Part shown: one piece after another, positions 12,840 through 32,000 of the stretch | How positions within the stretch are numbered: position 1 is the first letter of the stretch | How the letters are laid out: each line of letters starts with the position of its first letter | Assembly (NCBI GenBank): GCA_029851085.1 | Contig: CP100318.1 | Span: 1 to 32,000, forward strand | From: Candidatus Saccharimonadota bacterium | Lineage (GTDB): Bacteria; Bacteroidota; Bacteroidia; Flavobacteriales; Blattabacteriaceae | Length of the DNA stretch: 32,000 nt | Direction: 5' to 3' | Position numbers and translations under genes: made by a program | Notes under the pieces: generated by a model | The model's database searches: none | Told to the model about the DNA's origin: nothing | Seen by the model: the letters and a program-made list of their open reading frames with translations, nothing else

Positions 12840-13970
12840 TTATTGAGAATAATATGGCATAACTAACATTAATAATTCTTCTTCTTCTAAAGAATCAAAA
12901 GGTTTCAAAATTCCTGCTAAATTTGGTTTTGATAATTCAAATATAATATTTTCTCCATCAATATGTGATATTATATCTATTAAAAATTTTGAATTAAATC
13001 CTATTTTAAAATCTTTACCTGTATAATCACATTTTAATGTTTCAAAAGCTTGATTTGAAAAATCAATATCTTTTGCTATAAGATTCAATTTTTGAGATTT
13101 TAAATCTAAACATATTTGATAATTTTTTTTACTAGAAAAAAGTGCCATACGTTTAAGAGAATTTAAAAAAATATTTTTATTTATAATAAATTTTTTATCA
13201 TTATTTTTAGGAATTACAGATTCATAATTTGGATAATTACCAGTAATTAGTTTACATATTAATGTTTTGTCAGATAAAGAAAATTTTGTATTACTATCAT
13301 TATAATATATTGTCAATTGTTCTTCTTTTTTTGTCTTTAAAATACTTTTTAATATTTTTAATGGTTTTTTAGGAATAATTAATTTAGCAATTTGATTATT
13401 ATTTATAATAATATCTTTTCTAACATATTTTACTAATTTATAAGAATCTGTGCTTACAAAAACAGATTTATTAGTAGTAATATCAAAAAATACTCCTGTC
13501 ATAACTTGTTTAAATTCATCATTTCCTGAAGCAAATAATGTTTTATCAATTATTTTTGAAAATGTATTTGTGGATAATTTTATTGTACCTATATAATTAA
13601 TATTAGAAATATAAAGTGTAGGAAATGTTTCTGCATTTTGTATAGTTATGGTATAATTTCCATATTTAGAAATAATATTAAGTATATGTTCATTTTCTGA
13701 ATAAAATGTAATAGGTTGTTCAGAAAAATTTTTTAACGTATTTATAATTAATTTAGCTGGAACTGCAATTTTTCCTATTTGATAATTTTTAATGATATCA
13801 ATTTTAGTAATTAAAGTAATTTCTAAATCAGAAGCTATAACAAATAGTTTTTTATCTTTTACTTTAAAAATAAAATTATTTAAAATAGAAATAGGATTAT
13901 TGTAATTAATAATACCATTAAAATATTGTAAATATTTTAATAATTTATTACTTGAAATAGTAAATTTCAT
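12840..13970 (-). CDS. dnaN: DNA polymerase III beta sliding clamp
   Basis: 376-aa ORF, MKFTISSNKLLKYLQ..., of clamp-like length with the three-domain repeat pattern and the ending LLMLVMP typical of DnaN. Confidence 0.9.
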   Translation of the reverse strand: MKFTISSNKLLKYLQYFNGIINYNNPISILNNFIFKVKDKKLFVIASDLEITLITKIDIIKNYQIGKIAVPAKLIINTLKNFSEQPITFYSENEHILNIISKYGNYTITIQNAETFPTLYISNINYIGTIKLSTNTFSKIIDKTLFASGNDEFKQVMTGVFFDITTNKSVFVSTDSYKLVKYVRKDIIINNNQIAKLIIPKKPLKILKSILKTKKEEQLTIYYNDSNTKFSLSDKTLICKLITGNYPNYESVIPKNNDKKFIINKNIFLNSLKRMALFSSKKNYQICLDLKSQKLNLIAKDIDFSNQAFETLKCDYTGKDFKIGFNSKFLIDIISHIDGENIIFELSKPNLAGILKPFDSLEEEELLMLVMPYYSQ

Positions 13971-21498: not shown

Positions 21499-21511
21499 TA
21501 TAAGAAAATCT

Positions 21512-22141
21512 TCATTTTAAATCATCAATTACATAAACTAAATAATAGTTATCTATTTTTAGATAAAATGCAATAAAAGCTTTACAATATGATTTATCTA
21601 TAATCCAACATATTATATAAGGATCTTTTATTGAAAAAGGACTAATTTTATAATTAAGTAAAAAATTAACTAATTTTTTATTAGATAGTTTGTATAAACT
21701 TTCTTTAATACCCCAAATTATGTGTAATTGATCAACTTCAATACTATAATCAATAAAGTTAGCTTCATCTTTTCTAAGAAATTTATTTTTTACTTTTAAA
21801 ATTTTATTTATTTGACATTTTTCGATATCAACTCCTATAATATTATTACTAGTAGCTACTACTACTTTATTATAAGAATGACTAAATGAAACATTAAATT
21901 TATAATTTTTTATATAAGGTTTACCATTTAAATAATAAACTCTAGTATCTAATCCTAAATATTTTAAACAACAACGTATAGCTAAAAATTCGTATCTACG
22001 TTTTATATGTTTTATACAAGTAAATTTTTTTTTTTGAAAAAAAGGATTTAAATATTTTATTAAATAATTTTCACTTTCAATTAATTCCCATATTATAAGT
22101 TTAGTATGTTTATTTTTTTCTATTATTTTTATTATAGGAAT
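21512..22141 (-). CDS. 4'-phosphopantetheinyl transferase (Sfp type); start codon uncertain and non-canonical
   Basis: Absent from the ORF track. My hand translation of the minus strand gives an open frame of about 209 codons, from a TAA at 22165-22163 to a TGA at 21514-21512. It carries the PPTase motifs GVDIE and WGIKESLYK and a Bacteroidota-type N-terminus KLIIWELIES. The frame contains no ATG, GTG or TTG. Candidate starts are ATT at 22141 or neighbouring ATA codons. Confidence 0.75.
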   Translation of the reverse strand: MPIIKIIEKNKHTKLIIWELIESENYLIKYLNPFFQKKKFTCIKHIKRRYEFLAIRCCLKYLGLDTRVYYLNGKPYIKNYKFNVSFSHSYNKVVVATSNNIIGVDIEKCQINKILKVKNKFLRKDEANFIDYSIEVDQLHIIWGIKESLYKLSNKKLVNFLLNYKISPFSIKDPYIICWIIDKSYCKAFIAFYLKIDNYYLVYVIDDLK

Positions 22142-22146
22142 AACTA

Positions 22147-22941
22147 TTATATTTTTATTATATTATTATTATCTATATTCCAAGTTTTCCATATATTTTT
22201 TGTATTTATAAATAATAAATAAATACAAAATATCAATACTATTATAATAATAAAAATTATCAATTTATAATTTTGTATATAGGATATATTAATATTTTTC
22301 TTATTATAATATAATAAGATTTCTATTAAATTATTAAATAAATGTAAAAAAATACAATTTAATATTGAACGAGTACTAAAATATATAAATCCAATTACAC
22401 TACCTATTATAAATCCTGCAATAAATTGCAATGGATTCATATGGATTATACCAAATAAAAATGAAGAAAATAATATAGCATTTATATAATAAATCTTATT
22501 TTTAATAAGACCATTTAAAATAATACCTCTAAATAATATTTCTTCACATATAGGAGCTAATATTATTGTTGTAATTATAAAAGAAATAGGATGACAAAAA
22601 TATTTAATAATATCTGATGATCTAATTTGTATTAGATATAATATATATTCAGTTAAAATCATTGTTAATAACAATATAATAAAAATTAAAGGGTAAAAAT
22701 ACCATTTTGATAATTTTAAATTATCTTTAATAACTTTTTTATTAAAATTATATTTTAAGGATAAAAAATAAAAAATTAAGATAAATGGTATTACATATGA
22801 AATAGGAAATAAAATATATATCGGTACAAAAAATTTTTTTATTAAAATTGTACTTATACATATTGTTATTATACTTATAAATAACCAATTTATTATTAAA
22901 TAAATTGATTTAATATAATTTAAATTAAATTTTTTATTCAT
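22147..22941 (-). CDS. CPBP family (CAAX-type) intramembrane metalloprotease
   Basis: 264-aa polytopic membrane ORF with the three CPBP motifs: EEILFR (EExxxR), FGIIH (FxxxH) and HLFNN (HxxxN). Confidence 0.8.
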   Translation of the reverse strand: MNKKFNLNYIKSIYLIINWLFISIITICISTILIKKFFVPIYILFPISYVIPFILIFYFLSLKYNFNKKVIKDNLKLSKWYFYPLIFIILLLTMILTEYILYLIQIRSSDIIKYFCHPISFIITTIILAPICEEILFRGIILNGLIKNKIYYINAILFSSFLFGIIHMNPLQFIAGFIIGSVIGFIYFSTRSILNCIFLHLFNNLIEILLYYNKKNINISYIQNYKLIIFIIIIVLIFCIYLLFINTKNIWKTWNIDNNNIIKI

Positions 22942-23030
22942 ATTATATATATAAATAACCTTATTAAATAAATTGATTTAATATAATTTAAATTATTCAT
23001 ATTATATAAATAAATAAATTGATTTAAATT
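22877..23030. repeat. Diverged duplication (2 copies plus a third partial) of the 5' end of the CPBP gene including its start codon
   Basis: Copy A at 22877-22950 is the genuine 5' end. Copy B at 22951-23008 is identical except for a 6-bp and a 9-bp gap. The core AAATAAATTGATTTAA recurs a third time near 23012-23027. Confidence 0.9.
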
Positions 23031-23152: not shown

Positions 23153-23491
23153 ATGTCTTTAAAAATTCGTTTACAAAGAAAAGGAAGAAAAAAAAAACCA
23201 TATTATCCAATTGTTGTTATTGATTCACGTTTTCATAGAAATGGTAAATTTATAGAAAAATTAGGATTTTATAATCCACATACTAATCCTTCCACTATTA
23301 TATTAAATGTGGATAGTGCACTTAATTGGTTACAGAAAGGTGCTCAACCTACAAATACTGCAAGATCTATTCTTTCTAAAAAAGGTGTTTTATTAAAACA
23401 ACATTTATTAAAAGGTGTAAAAAAACAAGCATTAAATGTTGTTGAAGCTGAAAATAAATTTAAAAAGTGGATTGAAAATAAAAATGCGTAA
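23153..23491 (+). CDS. rpsP: 30S ribosomal protein S16
   Basis: MSLKIRLQRKGRKKKPYYPIVVIDSR...GFYNP, a typical S16 with a C-terminal extension. Confidence 0.95.
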   Translation: MSLKIRLQRKGRKKKPYYPIVVIDSRFHRNGKFIEKLGFYNPHTNPSTIILNVDSALNWLQKGAQPTNTARSILSKKGVLLKQHLLKGVKKQALNVVEAENKFKKWIENKNA

Positions 23492-23679
23492 TAAACATAA
23501 TTATTTTTTTTAAATCTACAAATACTGCAAGATCTATTCTTTCTAAAAAAGGTGTTTTATTAAAACAACATTTATTAAAAGGTGTAAAAAAACAAGCATT
23601 AAATGTTGTTGAAGCTGAAAATAAATTTAAAAAGTGGATTGAAAATAAAAATGCGTAATAAACATAATTATTTTTTTTT
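23349..23679. repeat. Near-perfect direct duplication (163 and 164 bp, 4-bp spacer) of the rpsP 3' end plus the rimM start
   Basis: 23349-23511 and 23516-23679 are identical by hand alignment except for a T-run of 8 versus 9. Confidence 0.95.
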
Positions 23680-24151
23680 AGGAAAACTGATAAAATCACG
23701 TATTAAAAAGTATGATTTTGTTATATTATTAAATAATAATATATGTTTTAATAAAAATATTAAATTTTTATTAATAGAATTAGAGGGAATTTTAATTCCT
23801 TTTTTAATAAAATCATATTTGTTAATTAATAATAAATTTTTAATTGATTTTGAATTTTTTTTAAAAAAAGAATATTACAATATTACAGGAAGTAATATTT
23901 ATTTAGAATTTAAATATTTACTTTTTACAGAAAATGTTAATAATAACATTATAGGTTTTAATGTAAAAGATATAAATAAAGGATTTATAGGTGTTGTTAT
24001 AGATATTTATCGTAACTTAAAACAAGATCTTTTTAAAGTTTATTTTGAAAATAAATATTTTTTAATACCTATAACAAAAGTTTTTATAAAAGAAATAAAT
24101 ATAAATGAAAAATATATTTTAACTGAAATTCCATTTGGATTAATAGAATAA
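23651..24151 (+). CDS. rimM: Ribosome maturation factor RimM
   Basis: MRNKHNYFFLGKLIKS... with C-terminal FLIPITKVFIKEININEKYILTEIPFGL, in the conserved rpsP-rimM order. I prefer the ATG at 23651. The ORF-track start at 23603 lies inside the duplicated rpsP fragment. Confidence 0.82.
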   Translation: MRNKHNYFFLGKLIKSRIKKYDFVILLNNNICFNKNIKFLLIELEGILIPFLIKSYLLINNKFLIDFEFFLKKEYYNITGSNIYLEFKYLLFTENVNNNIIGFNVKDINKGFIGVVIDIYRNLKQDLFKVYFENKYFLIPITKVFIKEININEKYILTEIPFGLIE

Positions 24152-26071
24152 TTATATATCTATATTTGCATAAATAGAATTTGATTCTATAAATTTTTTA
24201 CGAGGTAACACATTATCTCCCATAAGAATTGAAAATATATTATCAGCTTCTACATTATCTTTTATTATTAATTGACGTAAAATTCTATTTTTTGGATTCA
24301 TTGTTGTTTCCCATAATTGATCAGCATTCATTTCTCCTAATCCTTTATATCTTTGAATATTTATTCCTTTATTATTGTCAAATTTATGTTTTATAATATG
24401 TTCTCTATCTTTTTCATTCCATGCATAAAAAGATTTTTTACCTTTTTTTATTAAATATAAAGGAGGCATAGCTATATAAATATAGCCTTTTTCTATTAAA
24501 ATTTTCATATAACGAAAAAAGAAAGTAATAATAAGTGTAGAAATATGACTACCATCTATATCAGCATCTGTCATTATTATTATTTTATAATAACGTAATT
24601 TATCTAAGTTTAAAATAGATGTTTTTTCACAAGAAAGACCTAAAGCCATAAATATATTACGTATATCTTCATTTTCATAAATTTTATTTTGCATTGCTTT
24701 CTCAACATTTAATATTTTTCCACGTAATGGTAATATTGCTTGAAAATTTCTATCACGTCCTTGTTTAGCAGTTCCTCCTGCAGAATCTCCTTCTACTAAA
24801 AATATTTCACAATTTTTAGGTTCATTTAAAGAACAATCGGCTAATTTTCCAGGTAATCCTAATCCTATATTACTTATTAAAATATTATTATGTATTAATT
24901 CACGAGTTCTTTTAGCTGCTTTTCTAGCTTTAGCAGCAATAATAATTTTTTCTATTATTTTTTTAGCATCATATGGATATTCTTCTAAATAACTACCAAG
25001 CATATCTCCTACAATTTTGTCTACAGCTCCGATAACTTCATTATTACTTAATTTAGTTTTAGTTTGTCCTTCAAATTGAGGATACATTAATTTAATAGAT
25101 ATTATTGCGGTAATGCCTTCACGAAAATCATCACCAATTAAATCAATATTTTCTTTTTTTAAAATACCATTTTCTTCAGCATATTTTTTTAGTGTTCTAG
25201 TTATTGCTCTACGAAATCCTGTTAAATGAGTACCACCTTCTTGTGTATTAATATTATTAACATATGAAAGTATTTTTTCTTTAAAAGAAGTATTATACTT
25301 TATAGCTATTTCTACAAAAATATCATTTATTTTATCTTCTATTAAAATAATATTTTTTATAATTGATTCACAATCTTTATCTATAAAAGATATAAACTCT
25401 TTCAATCCGTATTTTGAATAAAAAATTTTTTTTTTAAAATTTACTTCACTATCAATTTCTCTTTCATCAATAAAATATATGAATATTCCTTTGTTTAAAA
25501 AAGATAATTCTCTAAAACGTGTTGCTAATACATCATAATTATATGTTATATTATTAAATATAGTATTATCAGCTTTAAATGTTATTTCAGTGCCTTGTTT
25601 AGAAGTATTACCTATATATTCTAAATCTGTTATAGCTTTTCCTTTAGAATATTTTTGACGATAAATTTTATTATCACGATATATAGTAGCAATTAGCCAT
25701 TCTGATAAAGCATTTACGCAAGAAATTCCAATTCCATGTAATCCTCCAGATATTTTATATGAATTTTTATCAAATTTTCCTCCAGCTCCTATTTTTGTCA
25801 TAACTAATTCAAGTGCTGAACATTTTTCTTTTTTATGTTTATCTATAGGAATACCCCTTCCATTATCTTTAATAGTAATAGAATTATCTTTATGTATAGT
25901 AACCCATATTTTATTACAAAATCCAGCTAGAGCTTCATCTATAGAATTATCTATTACTTCATTGACCAAATGATGAAATCCTTTAGATCCTACATCGCCA
26001 ATATACATGGATGGTCTTAATCTTACATGTTCAATTCCTTCAAAAAATTGAATATTATCAGCTGTATACAT
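24152..26071 (-). CDS. gyrB: DNA gyrase subunit B
   Basis: 639-aa ORF with YTADNIQFFEGIEHVRLRPSMYIG, GGLHGIG, LVEGDSAGG and PLRGKILNVEKA motifs. Confidence 0.97.
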   Translation of the reverse strand: MYTADNIQFFEGIEHVRLRPSMYIGDVGSKGFHHLVNEVIDNSIDEALAGFCNKIWVTIHKDNSITIKDNGRGIPIDKHKKEKCSALELVMTKIGAGGKFDKNSYKISGGLHGIGISCVNALSEWLIATIYRDNKIYRQKYSKGKAITDLEYIGNTSKQGTEITFKADNTIFNNITYNYDVLATRFRELSFLNKGIFIYFIDEREIDSEVNFKKKIFYSKYGLKEFISFIDKDCESIIKNIILIEDKINDIFVEIAIKYNTSFKEKILSYVNNINTQEGGTHLTGFRRAITRTLKKYAEENGILKKENIDLIGDDFREGITAIISIKLMYPQFEGQTKTKLSNNEVIGAVDKIVGDMLGSYLEEYPYDAKKIIEKIIIAAKARKAAKRTRELIHNNILISNIGLGLPGKLADCSLNEPKNCEIFLVEGDSAGGTAKQGRDRNFQAILPLRGKILNVEKAMQNKIYENEDIRNIFMALGLSCEKTSILNLDKLRYYKIIIMTDADIDGSHISTLIITFFFRYMKILIEKGYIYIAMPPLYLIKKGKKSFYAWNEKDREHIIKHKFDNNKGINIQRYKGLGEMNADQLWETTMNPKNRILRQLIIKDNVEADNIFSILMGDNVLPRKKFIESNSIYANIDI

Positions 26072-26119
26072 GGTAATTTAAAAAATATAAATGGTAATTT
26101 AAAAAATATAAATGGTAAT
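26070..26119. repeat. 21-bp tandem repeat (2.4 copies) abutting the gyrB start codon
   Basis: ATGGTAATTTAAAAAATATAA occurs at 26070-26090 and 26091-26111, and its first 8 nt recur at 26112-26119. The first unit includes two bases of the start codon. Confidence 0.95.
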
Positions 26120-26201
26120 GTATATAAATATAATATAAAAATTAACTTTTTTAAAATAATTTTTTATTATATTTATTATATAATTATATAAATATAATAT
26201 G

Positions 26202-26897
26202 TTAATTAATGTTGATATAATATAACATAATTAATGTTGATTAACATAATTAATGTTGATTAATGTTGATAATTAATGTTGATTAACATAATTAATGTTG
26301 ATAATTAATGTTGATAATTAATGTTGATAATTAATGTTGATAAATTAATGTTGATTAATTAATGTTGATAATTAATGTTGATAATTAATGTTGATAATTA
26401 ATGTTGATAAATTAATGTTGATTAATTAATGTTGATAATTAATGTTGATAATTAATGTTGATAATTAATGTTGATAAATTAATGTTGATAATTAATGTTG
26501 ATAAACATAATTAATGTTGATAATTAATGTTGATAAATTAATGTTGATTAATTAATGTTGATAATTAATGTTGATAATTAATGTTGATAATTAATGTTGA
26601 TAAATTAATGTTGATAATTAATGTTGATTAACATAATTAATGTTGATAATTAATGTTGATAATTAATGTTGATAATTAATGTTGATAAATTAATGTTGAT
26701 AATTAATGTTGATAATTAATGTTGATAATTAATGTTGATAATTAATGTTGATAAATTAATGTTGATAATTAATGTTGATAATTAATGTTGATAATTAATG
26801 TTGATTATTAATGTTGATTAATTAATGTTGATAATTAATGTTGATAATTAATGTTGATAATTAATGTTGATAAATTAATGTTGATTAATGTTGATAA
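26202..26897. repeat. Minisatellite array: roughly 50 head-to-tail units of 13-14 bp (core TTAATGTTGATAA) with a 67-bp higher-order period
   Basis: I hand-counted about 50 occurrences of TTAATGTTGA. The unit variants are A = ATAATTAATGTTG, B = ATAAATTAATGTTG and C = ATTAATTAATGTTG, plus occasional 19-nt AACATA-containing units. The block AAABC (67 bp) repeats perfectly at 26301-26367 and 26368-26434. Confidence 0.97.
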
Positions 26898-27518
26898 TTA
26901 ATGTGGTAAATACACTACTTTTTTAGTGTAGAAAAATTTTTGATTAAAATAATCAATTAAATAATATTCTTTTGCTTGTGGAAAATTTTTTAATTCTTTA
27001 GAAAGGTCACCTCCTTTTAAAAAAAAAATACCATTTGGTAAATTATGTCGATTTTTAGATAAAAATTTTCCTTTTACCCATTTATATAAATATTGTATAC
27101 GTGTAACAGCACGGCTTATGATAAAATCAAATTTATCTTTAACATCATTAGCACGTATACAAGATATATTTACATTTATTAATCCTAATTCATATGAAAT
27201 TAATTCTACTACTTTAGTTTTTTTTTTAATAGAATCTATTAATAAAAATTGGCTTTCTGGGAATAATATTGCTAAAGGAATTCCAGGAAATCCACCACCT
27301 GTTCCTACATCCATAATATATGATTTAGGTAAAAAATTAATTATTTTAGCTATACCTAATGAATGTAACACGTGGTGTTCATAAAAATTGTTTATAATTG
27401 TTTTTCTAGAAATTAAATTTATACGTGTATTCCAATACATATATATATTTTTCATCTGAATAAAACGTTCAATTTGTTGATTATTTAGTTCAGAAAAATA
27501 TTTTGTTAGAGTTAACAT
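26898..27518 (-). CDS. rsmG: 16S rRNA (guanine527-N7)-methyltransferase
   Basis: 206-aa ORF with the SAM motif DVGTGGGFPGIPLAI, GidB/RsmG-like throughout. Confidence 0.9.
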   Translation of the reverse strand: MLTLTKYFSELNNQQIERFIQMKNIYMYWNTRINLISRKTIINNFYEHHVLHSLGIAKIINFLPKSYIMDVGTGGGFPGIPLAILFPESQFLLIDSIKKKTKVVELISYELGLINVNISCIRANDVKDKFDFIISRAVTRIQYLYKWVKGKFLSKNRHNLPNGIFFLKGGDLSKELKNFPQAKEYYLIDYFNQKFFYTKKVVYLPH

Positions 27519-27556
27519 AAAATTAATTAATATTGTTTATATAATAATTTAAAATT

Positions 27557-28747
27557 ATGTATCAAATTTCAAAAAGACTTCAAAATATGAGATATTCACA
27601 AACTTTAGCAATGACTGCTAGAGCTAGATATTTAAAGTCGTTAGGTAATGATATAATTAGTCTTAGTGTTGGTGAACCAGATTTTTTACCTCCTGATTTT
27701 ATACTTAATGCTTCTAAAAAAGCTATTGATGATGGACATCATTATTATACTCCTGTAGCTGGTTATTCAAAATTAAGAGAAGTTATTTGTAATAAATTTA
27801 AACGTGATAATAATATATCTTATTCTCCTTCTCAAATAATTGTATCTACTGGTGTTAAACAATCTATTATTAATGTATTATTAGCAATACTTAATTCACA
27901 AGATGAAATAATTATACCTGCTCCTTATTGGGTAAGTTATTGTGAAATGGCAAAATTGTGTGAAGCTAATCCGATTATTGTTTATACAAAAGTTGAAAAT
28001 AATTATAAAATTACTCCTGAAGAATTAGAAAATGCAATTACTACTAGAACAAAAGCATTTATTTTTAGTACACCTTGTAATCCTACAGGAAGTGTTTACA
28101 GTAGAAATGAATTAAAACTTTTATCTAAAGTATTTAGTAAACATCCAAATATAATTATTATTTCAGATGAAATATATGAACATATATGTTATAATAATGA
28201 ACATATAAGTATAGCAACATTTCCATCAGTATATGAACAAACTGTAACATTAAATGGTCTTTCAAAATCTTTTGCTATGACAGGTTGGAGAATTGGTTAT
28301 ATAGGTGCTACTGAATGGTTGACTCAAGCTTGTGAAAAAATACAAGGACAAACTACTTCTTGTGCAAATTCTATAGCACAATGTGCAGCTATTGCAGCAT
28401 TAGAATCATCTCCTAAAAGTATTGAATATATGATATCAGCTTTCAAAAAAAGATTAGATCTAGTTGTAGATTTATTAAATGATATTCCTGGATTTATTTT
28501 ATTAAATAAACCCCAAGGAGCTTTTTATGTATTTCCTAACGTTTCTAATTTTTTGGGCAAAAAATTTAATGGAAAAAAAATAAAAAATACTGATGATTTA
28601 GCAATATATTTACTGGAAACAGCTAATGTATCTACAGTTAGTGGAACAGCATTTGGATATAATAATAGTTTACGTATTTCTTATGCTATATCAGAAGATA
28701 AATTAGAAAATGCTTTTAAAAGAATTAAAAATGCTTTAAAATTTTAG
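27557..28747 (+). CDS. aspC: Aspartate aminotransferase (class I, PLP-dependent)
   Basis: 396-aa ORF: SQTLAMTARARYLKSLGNDIISLSVGEPDF, NPTG, and the PLP-lysine context LNGLSKSFAMTGWRIGY. Confidence 0.85.
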   Translation: MYQISKRLQNMRYSQTLAMTARARYLKSLGNDIISLSVGEPDFLPPDFILNASKKAIDDGHHYYTPVAGYSKLREVICNKFKRDNNISYSPSQIIVSTGVKQSIINVLLAILNSQDEIIIPAPYWVSYCEMAKLCEANPIIVYTKVENNYKITPEELENAITTRTKAFIFSTPCNPTGSVYSRNELKLLSKVFSKHPNIIIISDEIYEHICYNNEHISIATFPSVYEQTVTLNGLSKSFAMTGWRIGYIGATEWLTQACEKIQGQTTSCANSIAQCAAIAALESSPKSIEYMISAFKKRLDLVVDLLNDIPGFILLNKPQGAFYVFPNVSNFLGKKFNGKKIKNTDDLAIYLLETANVSTVSGTAFGYNNSLRISYAISEDKLENAFKRIKNALKF

Positions 28748-28788
28748 TTAAAAAATTGTATTTTGTATTGATTATTATTTTTTTATTT

Positions 28789-30084
28789 ATGCAAAAAAAA
28801 ATATTTATATATTTATTTATAATAATAACGTATTTAATTAATTCTTCTTATACTTATGACAAAATAGAACGTAAAGATGACAAAGTAGATAGTAAAAATG
28901 AAAAAATAGAAGTAGATAGTATTGTTGCCCAAATAGGTAATAAAATTATTTTGAAATCTGAAATAGATAAATTAATAAATGAAAATTTTTGTTATAATAA
29001 AAAAGAACATTGTTATAAATTCTATGATTTATTAAAAGATAAATTATTAATTGATCTTATTAAGAATAATAATCTTATATCTAAGAATGAGATTAATGAG
29101 ATTAATAATGAGATTAATAAAGAAGCAATTTTGAAATTTCAAATTTCAAATTTAAATTTTGATCCAAATATATCAAAACAGATTTTTTATGACATAAAAA
29201 ATAATATTTATTATAATCGTATAATAAAAATTATTAATCATAATAATGATATTTATGTTAGTCCTAAAGAAATACATAATTATATCAATTATATAAATAA
29301 GAAAAATAAAATAATTATACCTAGTATTTTTGAATTATCTACTATTATTTTTTTTCCTAAAATAACTAATGATCATAAAAAACAAATAATAAATAAATTA
29401 TATAAAATAAAGAAAGAAATAGAAAATGGATGTGATTTTAATAAAAAAGCTATTATATATTCTGATGATATTAAATCATCAATAAATGGAGGATTAATAA
29501 AAGGATTAAATTTTGATTTAATAAATAATGACTTAAAAAAAGTTATTTCTTCTTTAAAAGAAGGTGAATTATCAAAACCTTTTGAAATTGAATCAAAATT
29601 TATTCTATTAAAATTAGAAAAAATAAGAGGAAAAGAATTTGATATACGTTTAATACTTATTAAACCAAAATATACAAAAGAAGAATTTTATAAAACATTA
29701 AAATTGGTTTATTCAGTAAATAATGATATTATTAATAATAAAATAAGTTTTGAAGAGGCAAGATATAAATATCCAAATATTTTAATGAATGATAAAATTC
29801 AAGTTAATAAAAATAAAATTCCTGCTATTTTAAAGAATAAAAAAAATGGATATATTAGTAAACCATTATCATTAGAATTAAATGGAATAAAAGTTTTTTA
29901 TTTAATAAAATTTATTAATAAAATTCCAGTACATCAATTATCCTTTGATAGTGATTATGAATATATAAAAAATTTTTTATATACTAAAAAAAGTATTAAA
30001 AATATTATGAATTTTATTAAATACAATATTAAAGATACTTTTATTAAAATTTTTGATGAAAAATATAAAAATTGTTATAAATAA
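28789..30084 (+). CDS. SurA-like periplasmic chaperone / parvulin-type peptidyl-prolyl isomerase (degenerate)
   Basis: About 431 aa from the ATG at 28789, with a signal-like N-terminus MQKKIFIYLFIIITYLI, a SurA-N-like region (VDSIVAQIGNKIILKSEIDK) and a weak parvulin region (INGGLIKGLNF...GELSKPFEIESKFILLKLE). The TTG extension at 28756 is judged spurious. Confidence 0.55.
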   Translation: MQKKIFIYLFIIITYLINSSYTYDKIERKDDKVDSKNEKIEVDSIVAQIGNKIILKSEIDKLINENFCYNKKEHCYKFYDLLKDKLLIDLIKNNNLISKNEINEINNEINKEAILKFQISNLNFDPNISKQIFYDIKNNIYYNRIIKIINHNNDIYVSPKEIHNYINYINKKNKIIIPSIFELSTIIFFPKITNDHKKQIINKLYKIKKEIENGCDFNKKAIIYSDDIKSSINGGLIKGLNFDLINNDLKKVISSLKEGELSKPFEIESKFILLKLEKIRGKEFDIRLILIKPKYTKEEFYKTLKLVYSVNNDIINNKISFEEARYKYPNILMNDKIQVNKNKIPAILKNKKNGYISKPLSLELNGIKVFYLIKFINKIPVHQLSFDSDYEYIKNFLYTKKSIKNIMNFIKYNIKDTFIKIFDEKYKNCYK

Positions 30085-30096
30085 TTGGATTTACAT

Positions 30097-30345
30097 ATGA
30101 TTTTATTTATAAGTTTTGAAGAAAGTTTTTTTATAATTTTTGTTGCTATACTGTTATTTGGTGTAGATCAAATTCCTGAAATAGCAATGGTATTAGGTAA
30201 ATCTATATATAAAATACGTTATTCTATAAATAAAATAAAAAAAGAAATGTGGGAATATTATGAAAAAGAAGAATTTTCAAAAAAATTAAAAAAAGAAAAA
30301 AAAGAATTAGATGATAATTTTTCAGGTTCTATAAAACGAACATAA
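30097..30345 (+). CDS. tatA: Sec-independent (Tat) translocase protein TatA/E
   Basis: MILFISFEESFFIIFVAILLFGVDQIPEIAMVLGKSIYK: a transmembrane helix, then LLFG...IPE, then an amphipathic helix, as is typical of TatA. I prefer the ATG at 30097 over the TTG at 30085. Confidence 0.75.
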   Translation: MILFISFEESFFIIFVAILLFGVDQIPEIAMVLGKSIYKIRYSINKIKKEMWEYYEKEEFSKKLKKEKKELDDNFSGSIKRT

Positions 30346-30348
30346 TGT

Positions 30349-31836
30349 TTATGTTTTAATTTTAAAAGTTGTAATATTCTTATTATCTTCAAGTGTTATT
30401 CCTAATTCTTTTAATTCATTTCTTATATTATCTGATAATATCCAATTTTTTTCAGAACGAGCGTTATTACGAATTTTTATTAGTAAATTTATTAACTTTT
30501 TAGAAACATTATCTATTTTTTCAATTGGTTCAAGTCCTAAAACTTTAAAAATAAAATTATGCATAGTATTTTTAAATAGTAAAAAATCATCAATACCTAA
30601 TTTTAGAACGCCTTTTTCAAGTAATTCTATGTATTTAGTTGCTTTAAATAAAAGTGAAATTAACATTGGACTATTAAAATCATCATCCATAGCTTTATGA
30701 CATTCTTCTTTCCAAGAAAAGACATCAAAAGTTGATACCACATTATCTGTATCGGCATAATAAATATTATCTAATTTTTTAAATTTATTCATTAAACTAT
30801 AATATGTTCGTTCAGCATCAATAAGCGCATCATTAGAAATATTTATAATACTACGATAATGATTTTTTAAAATAAAAAAACGTACTATATTAGGATGAAA
30901 AGGTTTTTCTAAAAAAGTATTTTTACCACTAAAAATATCTTTAGGTAATAATATATTCATAGTAGATTTACTCATTTTATAACCATTTAATGTTAACATA
31001 TTAGTATGTATCCAAAAGTTAATTGTTTTTTGATTATAAATACCTTGAATTTGTGCTAATTCACATTCATGATGTGGAAATTTCAAATCTAGACCTCCAC
31101 CATGTATATCAAAAAATTTACCTAAATATTTAACACTCATAGTTGAACATTCTAAATGCCAACTAGGAAATCCATTTCCCCAAGGAGATGGCCAATGCAT
31201 TATATGATTTATGGGAGCTTTTTTCCATAATGCAAAATCTTTAGGATTACGTTTTTCTTGTTGTTTTTTTAAAAATCTACTTGATTCTATTAAATTATCA
31301 ATTTTATGTTTGCTTAAAATTCCATATTCATAATTTTTATTATAAGCTTCAATATTAAAATATACTGAACCGTTAACTTCATAAGCTAATCCTTTTTTAA
31401 TTAAAATTTTAATATATTCAATTTGATCGATTATATGACCTGTAGCTGTAGGTTCAATACTAGGTGGTAAAATATTAAATAGATATAAAGTCTGATGAAA
31501 ATCAATAGTATATTTTTGAACAATTTCCATAGGTTCAAGTTTTTCTATTTTAGCCTTTTTTCCAATTTTATCTTCTCCTTCATCATTATCATTTTCTAAA
31601 TGACCAACATCAGTAATATTACGTACATAACGCACTTTATAACCTAAATATTTAAAATATCTAAATATTAAATCAAAATGTATAAAAGTTCTGCAATTGC
31701 CTAAATGAATTTTATTATAAACTGTAGGTCCACAAACATACATACCAACATGTCCTTTAATAATTGGATTAAATATTTCTTTTTTTCCTGTAATAGAATT
31801 ATATATTTTTATATTACGTTTAATAATTTTTTTCAT
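30349..31836 (-). CDS. cysS: Cysteine--tRNA ligase
   Basis: 495-aa ORF with class I synthetase motifs: a HIGH-like HLGNCRT in [16 protein letters not shown], and KMSKS. Confidence 0.95.
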
Positions 31837-31874
31837 ACTTTATGTAAAATTACTATTTTTATATAATATATTAT

Positions 31875-32000
31875 ATGGCACAATTAACTTCACGTAGAGA
31901 AGATTATTCTAAATGGTATAATGAAATTATAATTAAAGCTAATTTAGCAGAAACATCTAATGTACGTGGATGTATGATTATAAAACCTTATGGGTTTGCT
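31875..32000 (+). CDS. proS: Proline--tRNA ligase (5' fragment, runs off the window)
   Basis: [42 protein letters not shown] matches the N-terminus of archaeal/Bacteroidota-type ProRS. Not in the ORF track because it is truncated by the window edge. Confidence 0.85.

Follow-up and report, generated by a model that had tools for sequence, protein, structure and literature searches.

The spacer between the genes rsmG and gyrB of Candidatus Bostrichicola ureolyticus LBRU, a symbiont of the beetle Lyctus brunneus, holds a minisatellite, that is, an array in which 50 units, each 10-25 nt long and for the most part 13-14 nt, follow one another head to tail, located on the minus strand at positions 26203-26897 of the stretch of DNA analyzed here, namely, positions 1 to 32,000 of the chromosome (CP100318, 337,336 bp; hereinafter, the window). 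We consider it very probable that this array is a neutral, lineage-specific, non-coding repeat of the variable number tandem repeat (VNTR) type that has recently expanded in LBRU and has no required function.

Structure of the array

Tandem Repeats Finder returns one array at 26203-26904, with a period of 13, 51.8 copies and a score of 1000 (alternative period, 53). This result bears out an initial inspection of the DNA without database searches (hereinafter, the sequence-only reading), which had described an array of about 700 bp composed of some 50 units of 13-14 bp in the rsmG-gyrB spacer. Parsing by anchoring on the motif TTAATGT yields 50 units and one degenerate terminal unit within rsmG; on the gene-sense (minus) strand, the unit reads TTATCAACATTAA. 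The units are assigned to type A (TTAATGTTGATAA, 30 copies), type B (TTAATGTTGATAAA, 8 copies) and type C (TTAATGTTGATTAA, 4 copies), the remainder comprising two variants found at the edges, two units of 10 nt and four of 19 nt, the latter with the insert ACATAA. The 19-nt units hold a short quasi-palindrome, ATGTTGATTAACAT. When followed from gyrB towards rsmG, the units are ordered as xDsADAAABCAAABCAAABAdABCAAABADAAABAAAABAAAcCAAABsAx, in which the blocks AAAB (53 bp) and AAABC (67 bp) recur, with the autocorrelation maxima at 13, 53, 26, 40 and 66/67 nt. One 67-bp block is duplicated exactly (26301-26367 and 26368-26434), so that the higher-order structure claimed in the sequence-only reading, which implies duplication of both single units and groups of units, is indeed present. 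The gyrB-proximal edge of the array (26206-26304, minus strand) is degenerate and consists of 25-, 19- and 10-nt variant units. The 30 identical units, the AAAB and AAABC blocks, the exact 67-bp duplication and the degenerate edges are, taken together, typical of replication slippage combined with unequal exchange.

The 13-mer, with at most one mismatch allowed, matches the window 50 times, always within the array, compared to approximately one match expected by chance and to none of 100 shuffles that reached 50. The gene-sense strand of the array is nearly free of G (5 in 702 nt). No open reading frame (ORF) of at least 40 codons is found at 26192-26897, the unit itself carrying stop codons on both strands (TAA and TGA on the plus strand, TAA on the minus strand), in line with the earlier statement that no frame stays open across the array. 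Thus, these are direct repeats with many copies that are non-coding and differ in copy number among related strains, as is characteristic of minisatellites and VNTRs, the between-strain difference being read from three sister assemblies of which two are short-read only. Two other classes of repeat arrays were considered and rejected. An array of clustered regularly interspaced short palindromic repeats (CRISPR) is ruled out because the units directly adjoin one another, with no spacers between them, and an iteron or centromere-like (parC/parS) array because no Rep or Par gene adjoins, the neighbours of the array being gyrB, rimM, rpsP, rsmG, an aminotransferase gene and a rotamase gene.

The flanking genes and the junctions

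The gene at 26898-27518 (minus strand; 206 aa) is rsmG, encoding the 16S rRNA m7G527 methyltransferase (Pfam PF02527, GidB; named so also by NCBI), and its product is 100% identical to an NCBI Bostrichicola protein. The gene at 24152-26071 (minus strand; 639 aa) is gyrB, encoding DNA gyrase subunit B with four gyrase B domains, and its product is 98% and 86% identical to those of Candidatus Bostrichicola ureolyticus CP100320 and CP100321, respectively; hence, both gene names given in the sequence-only reading were correct. The spacer between these genes is 826 bp long, the longest of the 21 spacers in the window, 11 of which do not exceed 38 bp; the G+C content of the window is 22.3%.

On the rsmG side, the array runs into the gene, as noticed from the sequence alone. 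The stop codon and the last four codons of rsmG (26898-26910, minus strand; TTTACCACATTAA) represent either a degenerate terminal unit or the seed of the array; of the 13 nt that end the gene, 10 coincide with the unit, the final 7 without exception. The final codons of rsmG together with the stop, when reverse-complemented, give the plus-strand sequence of these positions, TTAATGTGGTAAA. The alignment of RsmG proteins is conserved through ..KKVVYLP and is followed by a short tail that differs in each strain (H, QHI, NKFI, NNIKYLI), whereby the LBRU array begins one codon past the last conserved residue. Such a strain-variable tail appears to be what would be expected of a boundary that shifts along with a repeat tract.

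On the gyrB side, 131 bp of non-array DNA (26072-26202, minus strand) directly precede the gene. The sequence-only reading had placed the array where the gyrB promoter must be, but this is not required: since these 131 bp separate the gyrB ATG from the array, the array need not contain the promoter, which would most likely be found within 26072-26202. In a relative with a 1.6-Mb genome, the divergent aminotransferase/rsmG pair is kept but gyrB is not downstream of it. The rsmG-gyrB junction thus appears, as judged from this gene order, to be a derived feature specific to Bostrichicola and, being so restricted, the spacer would be derived DNA rather than an ancient regulatory region.

A hairpin of 6-7 bp (ACACTAAAAAAGTAGTGT; minus strand, 26918-26935) lies within the conserved 3' coding end of rsmG (..YTKKVVY..), just before the repeat-prone junction; it is present in LBRU and LCAV, and the version in DPOR is near-identical (for the strains, see below). 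As a candidate role, this hairpin might promote polymerase stalling and slippage.

Comparison with sister genomes and databases

The orthologous region was taken from three complete sister genomes, LCAV (L002), DMIN (L004) and DPOR (L007), of which the first two come from Illumina reads only and the third from Nanopore and PacBio reads; LAFR, the symbiont of Lyctus africanus, stands outside the spacer comparison as its contig stops within rsmG. The rsmG-gyrB spacers are 286 bp long in LCAV, 262 bp in DMIN and 583 bp in DPOR, and none of the three contains a copy of the 13-mer. Even LCAV, with a GyrB 98% identical to that of LBRU, has no such array: its spacer is almost pure A+T with a long (TA)n run, and a 98-bp repeat of 2.9 copies takes in the 3' end of rsmG, with ACACTAAAAAAGTA..TTTACAACATATATAA.. 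seen twice. The DMIN spacer shows AT-rich low-complexity repeats only. In DPOR, the 583-bp spacer is headed by a different minisatellite (L007 4621-4886) of 13 units, 15-28 nt each, anchored on AACATTAT and mostly reading AACATTATATTATATATATAT, the first of which begins within the rsmG stop codon.

The sequence-only reading had left a choice between very recent expansion and some function of the array, namely, that of a spacer, a protein-binding array or a length-variable promoter context. Expansion is favoured by the absence of the array from LCAV, DMIN and DPOR. The suggested functions found no support: the unit is conserved in no sister, unrelated repeats of other sizes occupy the same junction, and neighbouring junctions look alike in this respect (see below).

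The DMIN spacer differs between two assemblies of one sample, the GenBank record (L004 5739-6000) and a Logan contig (L005 1-345), by a 120-bp indel and one substitution, the Logan version being the longer one; this discrepancy is either a polymorphism or a misassembly of the published genome. Because of this 120-bp difference, spacer lengths from short reads are to be considered unreliable, a warning that applies to the short-read Bostrichicola genomes in general.

A pattern of two units has no match among 185,579 species-representative genomes of GTDB, a collection that apparently does not include Bostrichicola; likewise, a GyrB-based scan of the GTDB representative genomes found no relatives. 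In a metagenome scan, the two-unit pattern was encountered as single dimers only, in two unrelated Joint Genome Institute (JGI) contigs, and no array was seen. In these contigs (L012 636-661 and L013 1357-1382), TTAATGTTGATAA is present as exactly two tandem copies, with the surrounding sequence similar between the contigs (..CGA..TTAATGTTGATAATTAATGTTGATAAGA..); this dimer may be an operator-like direct repeat of another organism, unrelated to the array in LBRU.

A scenario for the emergence of the array

From the anatomy of the array, its junctions and the comparative pattern, all of which are directly observed, we infer replication slippage as the process and neutrality as the mode of evolution. 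The seed would be a short stretch at or just after the rsmG stop (..ACATTAA and the next few AT-rich bases) that became duplicated. Single 13-nt units could then have been added by replication slippage, whereas blocks of four to five units (53 and 67 bp) would have been copied by unequal exchange or by larger slippage events. The units in the middle would remain homogeneous because they are continually exchanged, with the edges left to degenerate. On the rsmG side, the spread of the array would be limited by purifying selection on the RsmG protein, which would stop it one codon past the last conserved residue. The array presumably persists because selection is weak in a bottlenecked symbiont.

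Relation to known systems

Spacer minisatellites of reduced symbiont genomes are a known kind of repeat, of which the LBRU array is a further example. The closest published case appears in Portiera of Bemisia tabaci, where one lineage shows intergenic tandem repeats and enlarged spacers together with the loss of dnaQ, mutL and other genes, the repeats being linked there to the loss of replication and repair genes, with no deletion bias (Sloan & Moran 2013, PMC3673631). Hence, the array, which the sequence-only reading called unexpected in a deletion-biased reduced genome, is real but has a precedent. Like LBRU, Candidatus Portiera aleyrodidarum is an obligate insect symbiont with a tiny AT-rich genome and some long, repeat-filled spacers, and in both cases the repeats are lineage-specific, absent in a sister lineage and interpreted as a mutational by-product. 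The difference is that the repeats of Portiera are mostly 7-bp microsatellites scattered over many spacers, whereas LBRU has one array, its 13-bp unit being present about 50 times and organized into higher-order blocks.

The VNTRs of Wolbachia include the loci named after their 105- and 141-bp repeats. Compared to the LBRU units, those of Wolbachia are longer and present in fewer copies, and the copy-number polymorphism has been demonstrated experimentally, whereas the LBRU array is known from assembled contigs. Still, the Wolbachia fingerprinting loci (PMC3287509) resemble the LBRU array in being intergenic minisatellites of an intracellular insect symbiont that differ between close strains. 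Similarly, the mycobacterial interspersed repetitive units (MIRU) used as MIRU-VNTR markers (PMC3635867) are minisatellites located between co-oriented genes. They are, however, made up of 40-100-bp units, form a family at about 40 loci and can encode short peptides, in contrast to the LBRU 13-mer, which occurs at one locus in the window and has all frames closed. Supply et al. (1997) reportedly found MIRU arrays to overlap, at their ends, with the stop and start codons of the genes on either side, which is comparable to the position of the LBRU array at the rsmG stop.

If the array is what we take it to be, a 337-kb genome of an obligate symbiont can gain DNA via tandem duplication at gene junctions, which runs counter to the simple picture of a pure deletion bias and parallels the case of Portiera. 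The array could also be of use as a highly variable marker, both to type strains of Bostrichicola and to follow bottlenecks in Lyctus brunneus. A much greater importance could be attributed to the spacer only if it proved to be a replication origin or a control region, and we found no evidence for either.

Alternative explanations

Several considerations weigh against a neutral, LBRU-specific minisatellite. The total length of the array and the internal order of its units come from the Nanopore-guided hybrid assembly, and the spacers of LCAV and DMIN may have been collapsed in the Illumina-only assemblies. At 260-830 bp, the spacer stands out in each of the four complete genomes, most spacers being short. 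The 7-mer AACATTA is common to the LBRU and DPOR units, with LCAV having CAACATAT at the same place, a sharing that could stem from shared ancestry in the gene terminus, could be due to chance given the AT-rich DNA or could point to a small element that is maintained there. The mutational cause, namely, loss of replication or repair genes, would be carried over to Bostrichicola by analogy. Finally, 39 of the units contain TTATCAACA, which on the gene-sense strand matches the DnaA box TTATCCACA in 8 of 9 positions, and rsmG and gyrB are typical neighbours of replication origins elsewhere.

The first of these points raises the question of whether an array that is real was given a wrong length and internal order by the hybrid assembly, with a cyclic k-mer graph being threaded along noisy Nanopore reads, so that the true array is much shorter or longer. 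LBRU was indeed assembled from Illumina and MinION R9 reads by a hybrid assembler (MaSuRCA mega-reads) at 55x coverage (PMC10284843), and short reads do not traverse the repeat: of the two independent Illumina-only Logan contigs used for LBRU (run SRR19201365, a Lyctus brunneus Illumina library), L006 matches the window exactly at 23649-26256 and L001 at 26875-32000, each breaking two to three units into the array. The 120-bp difference between the two assemblies of the DMIN spacer points the same way. The same LBRU contigs, however, verify that the array exists and confirm its junctions on either side as well as the variants at its edges, and they are identical to the flanks over 2.6 kb and 5.1 kb, which indicates a well-polished assembly; moreover, a k=31 graph that breaks from both directions requires a repeat in multiple copies. 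Furthermore, a 14-nt unit that recurs regularly every four to five units, together with one exact 67-bp duplication, is unlike random homopolymer error. We therefore regard such an artefact of length and order as unlikely.

It could be further argued that the array is a cis-regulatory element of gyrB or of a joint rsmG-gyrB transcript, acting as a contingency locus would, with changes in copy number tuning the expression of gyrB via the promoter context, the topology of the DNA or the efficiency of read-through. The array is situated upstream of gyrB and shares the strand of rsmG, a scan for terminator-like sites between the two genes found none, and the units lack ATG in the gene-sense direction, so that a read-through transcript would bear no false AUG starts. 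These features notwithstanding, it is non-array DNA, 131 bp of it, that adjoins the gyrB ATG, and LCAV, with its 98% identical GyrB, manages without the array. The region has fewer sigma-70-like promoter sites than shuffled sequences do (9 found vs 22 expected). The promoter motif of Bacteroidota at -7 is TAnnTTTG, which the nearly G-free gene-sense strand of the array cannot carry. Taken together, these data make a regulatory role of the array highly improbable. In relation to phase-variable contingency loci, the array is found to overlap neither of the two ORFs and to keep a distance of at least 131 bp from the ATG of gyrB. Other candidate signals were rejected: on the plus strand, TAATGTTG resembles the Bacteroidota-type promoter but would direct transcription antisense into rsmG, away from gyrB, and, as to stable hairpins or slipped structures, folding of the single strand yields weak AT hairpins only (for 143 nt, the minimum free energy is -7 to -10 kcal/mol and the centroid structure is nearly empty). 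Rfam gave no match at E <= 1 within 25900-27100.

Equally improbable, in our opinion, is that the spacer constitutes all or part of the origin of chromosomal replication, with the array representing DnaA-box-like sites, or sites of another initiator, amplified in LBRU. In many bacteria, rsmG (gidB) and gyrB are located near oriC, and the spacer would suit such a role, given that no other in the window is as long, that it is of considerable length in each of the four strains and that, apart from the array, it consists of nearly nothing but A+T; the minimum of the cumulative GC skew in the window at about 25.5-26 kb would fit as well. As in oriC clusters of DnaA boxes, 9-mers are repeated here in an AT-rich spacer near rsmG/gyrB-type genes, with a match of 8/9 to the consensus. 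Unlike the array, however, oriC contains a few spaced boxes in both orientations that are conserved among relatives; the 39 copies in LBRU are identical, head-to-tail, on one strand and absent from close relatives, and they do not count as independent evidence because they are one sequence amplified by duplication. The mismatch in TTATCAACA hits the C of the consensus TTATNCACA, a conserved position; all copies read the same, and the spacer contains no exact box fitting TTATNCACA. Outside the array, one-mismatch boxes are not enriched (8 found vs 11.6 expected), and the spacers of LCAV, DMIN and DPOR have no such boxes. The skew minimum near 26 kb, which was considered within the window only, was not taken as evidence of an origin since it follows gene orientation, the per-gene skews showing that coding strands are G-rich in both orientations. 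In addition, dnaA and DnaA boxes are missing in Blattabacterium, a related endosymbiont (PMC2768785), and dnaA is missing in the small-genome Bacteroidota symbionts of scale insects (bioRxiv 10.1101/2025.10.31.685726). One might still envisage that Bostrichicola, possibly lacking DnaA like these reduced relatives, uses the spacer in replication initiation or fork arrest, and that, for this reason, an AACATTA cis-element downstream of rsmG has been amplified repeatedly across Bostrichicola lineages (as 13-nt units in LBRU and 15-28-nt units in DPOR); this is a distant prospect, although, if true, the long-sought replication origin of chromosomes of this type would be marked by the arrays.

Tandem duplications at other gene junctions

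The interpretation of the array as a neutral minisatellite can be set against the tandem repeats of the window at large: six of the nine with a score of at least 70 overlap a gene end. Within the same spacer, the start region of gyrB is duplicated by a 21-bp repeat of 3.2 copies (26065-26133, minus strand; TTTTTTAAATTACCAT[G/T]TATA), in which (TTTTTTAAATTACCATGTATA, minus strand) only the copy at the gene carries ATG, the two upstream copies having ATT instead. An exact 167-bp tandem duplication (23349-23515 and 23516-23678, the second copy being 163 bp long) spans the 3' end of rpsP and the start of rimM. Both rpsP (23153-23491) and rimM (true start at 23648) persist as one intact copy each, and the duplication also gives rise to an incomplete additional rpsP and to 15 spurious codons at the N-terminus of the rimM ORF; the duplication is supported as real by the break of the Illumina-only contig L006 30 nt into it. 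In LCAV, the rimM-rpsP junction (L002 8360-8664) holds different repeats, namely, an exact one of 71 bp x 2.8 and one of 108 bp x 2, and a 132-bp x 2 repeat is found farther on (L002 9105-9362), so that duplication at gene junctions recurs independently in the genus. Two more repeats of the LBRU window, 26 bp x 2.6 (22110-22179) and 32 bp x 3.2 (22892-22997), overlap the stop and the start of an Rce1-like gene (22147-22941), and a further repeat overlaps the start of the gene at 12840-13970. Gene-end tandem duplication would be a common route by which spacer DNA is gained in the genus.

Adjacent to the Rce1-like gene, the 648 bp at 21499-22146 contain no ORF of at least 90 codons in LBRU; at the matching position, LCAV has a gene for a 209-aa protein with a weak ACPS match, and DMIN has a gene for a 147-aa protein with an ACPS domain. 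The gene at this position may be decaying in LBRU.

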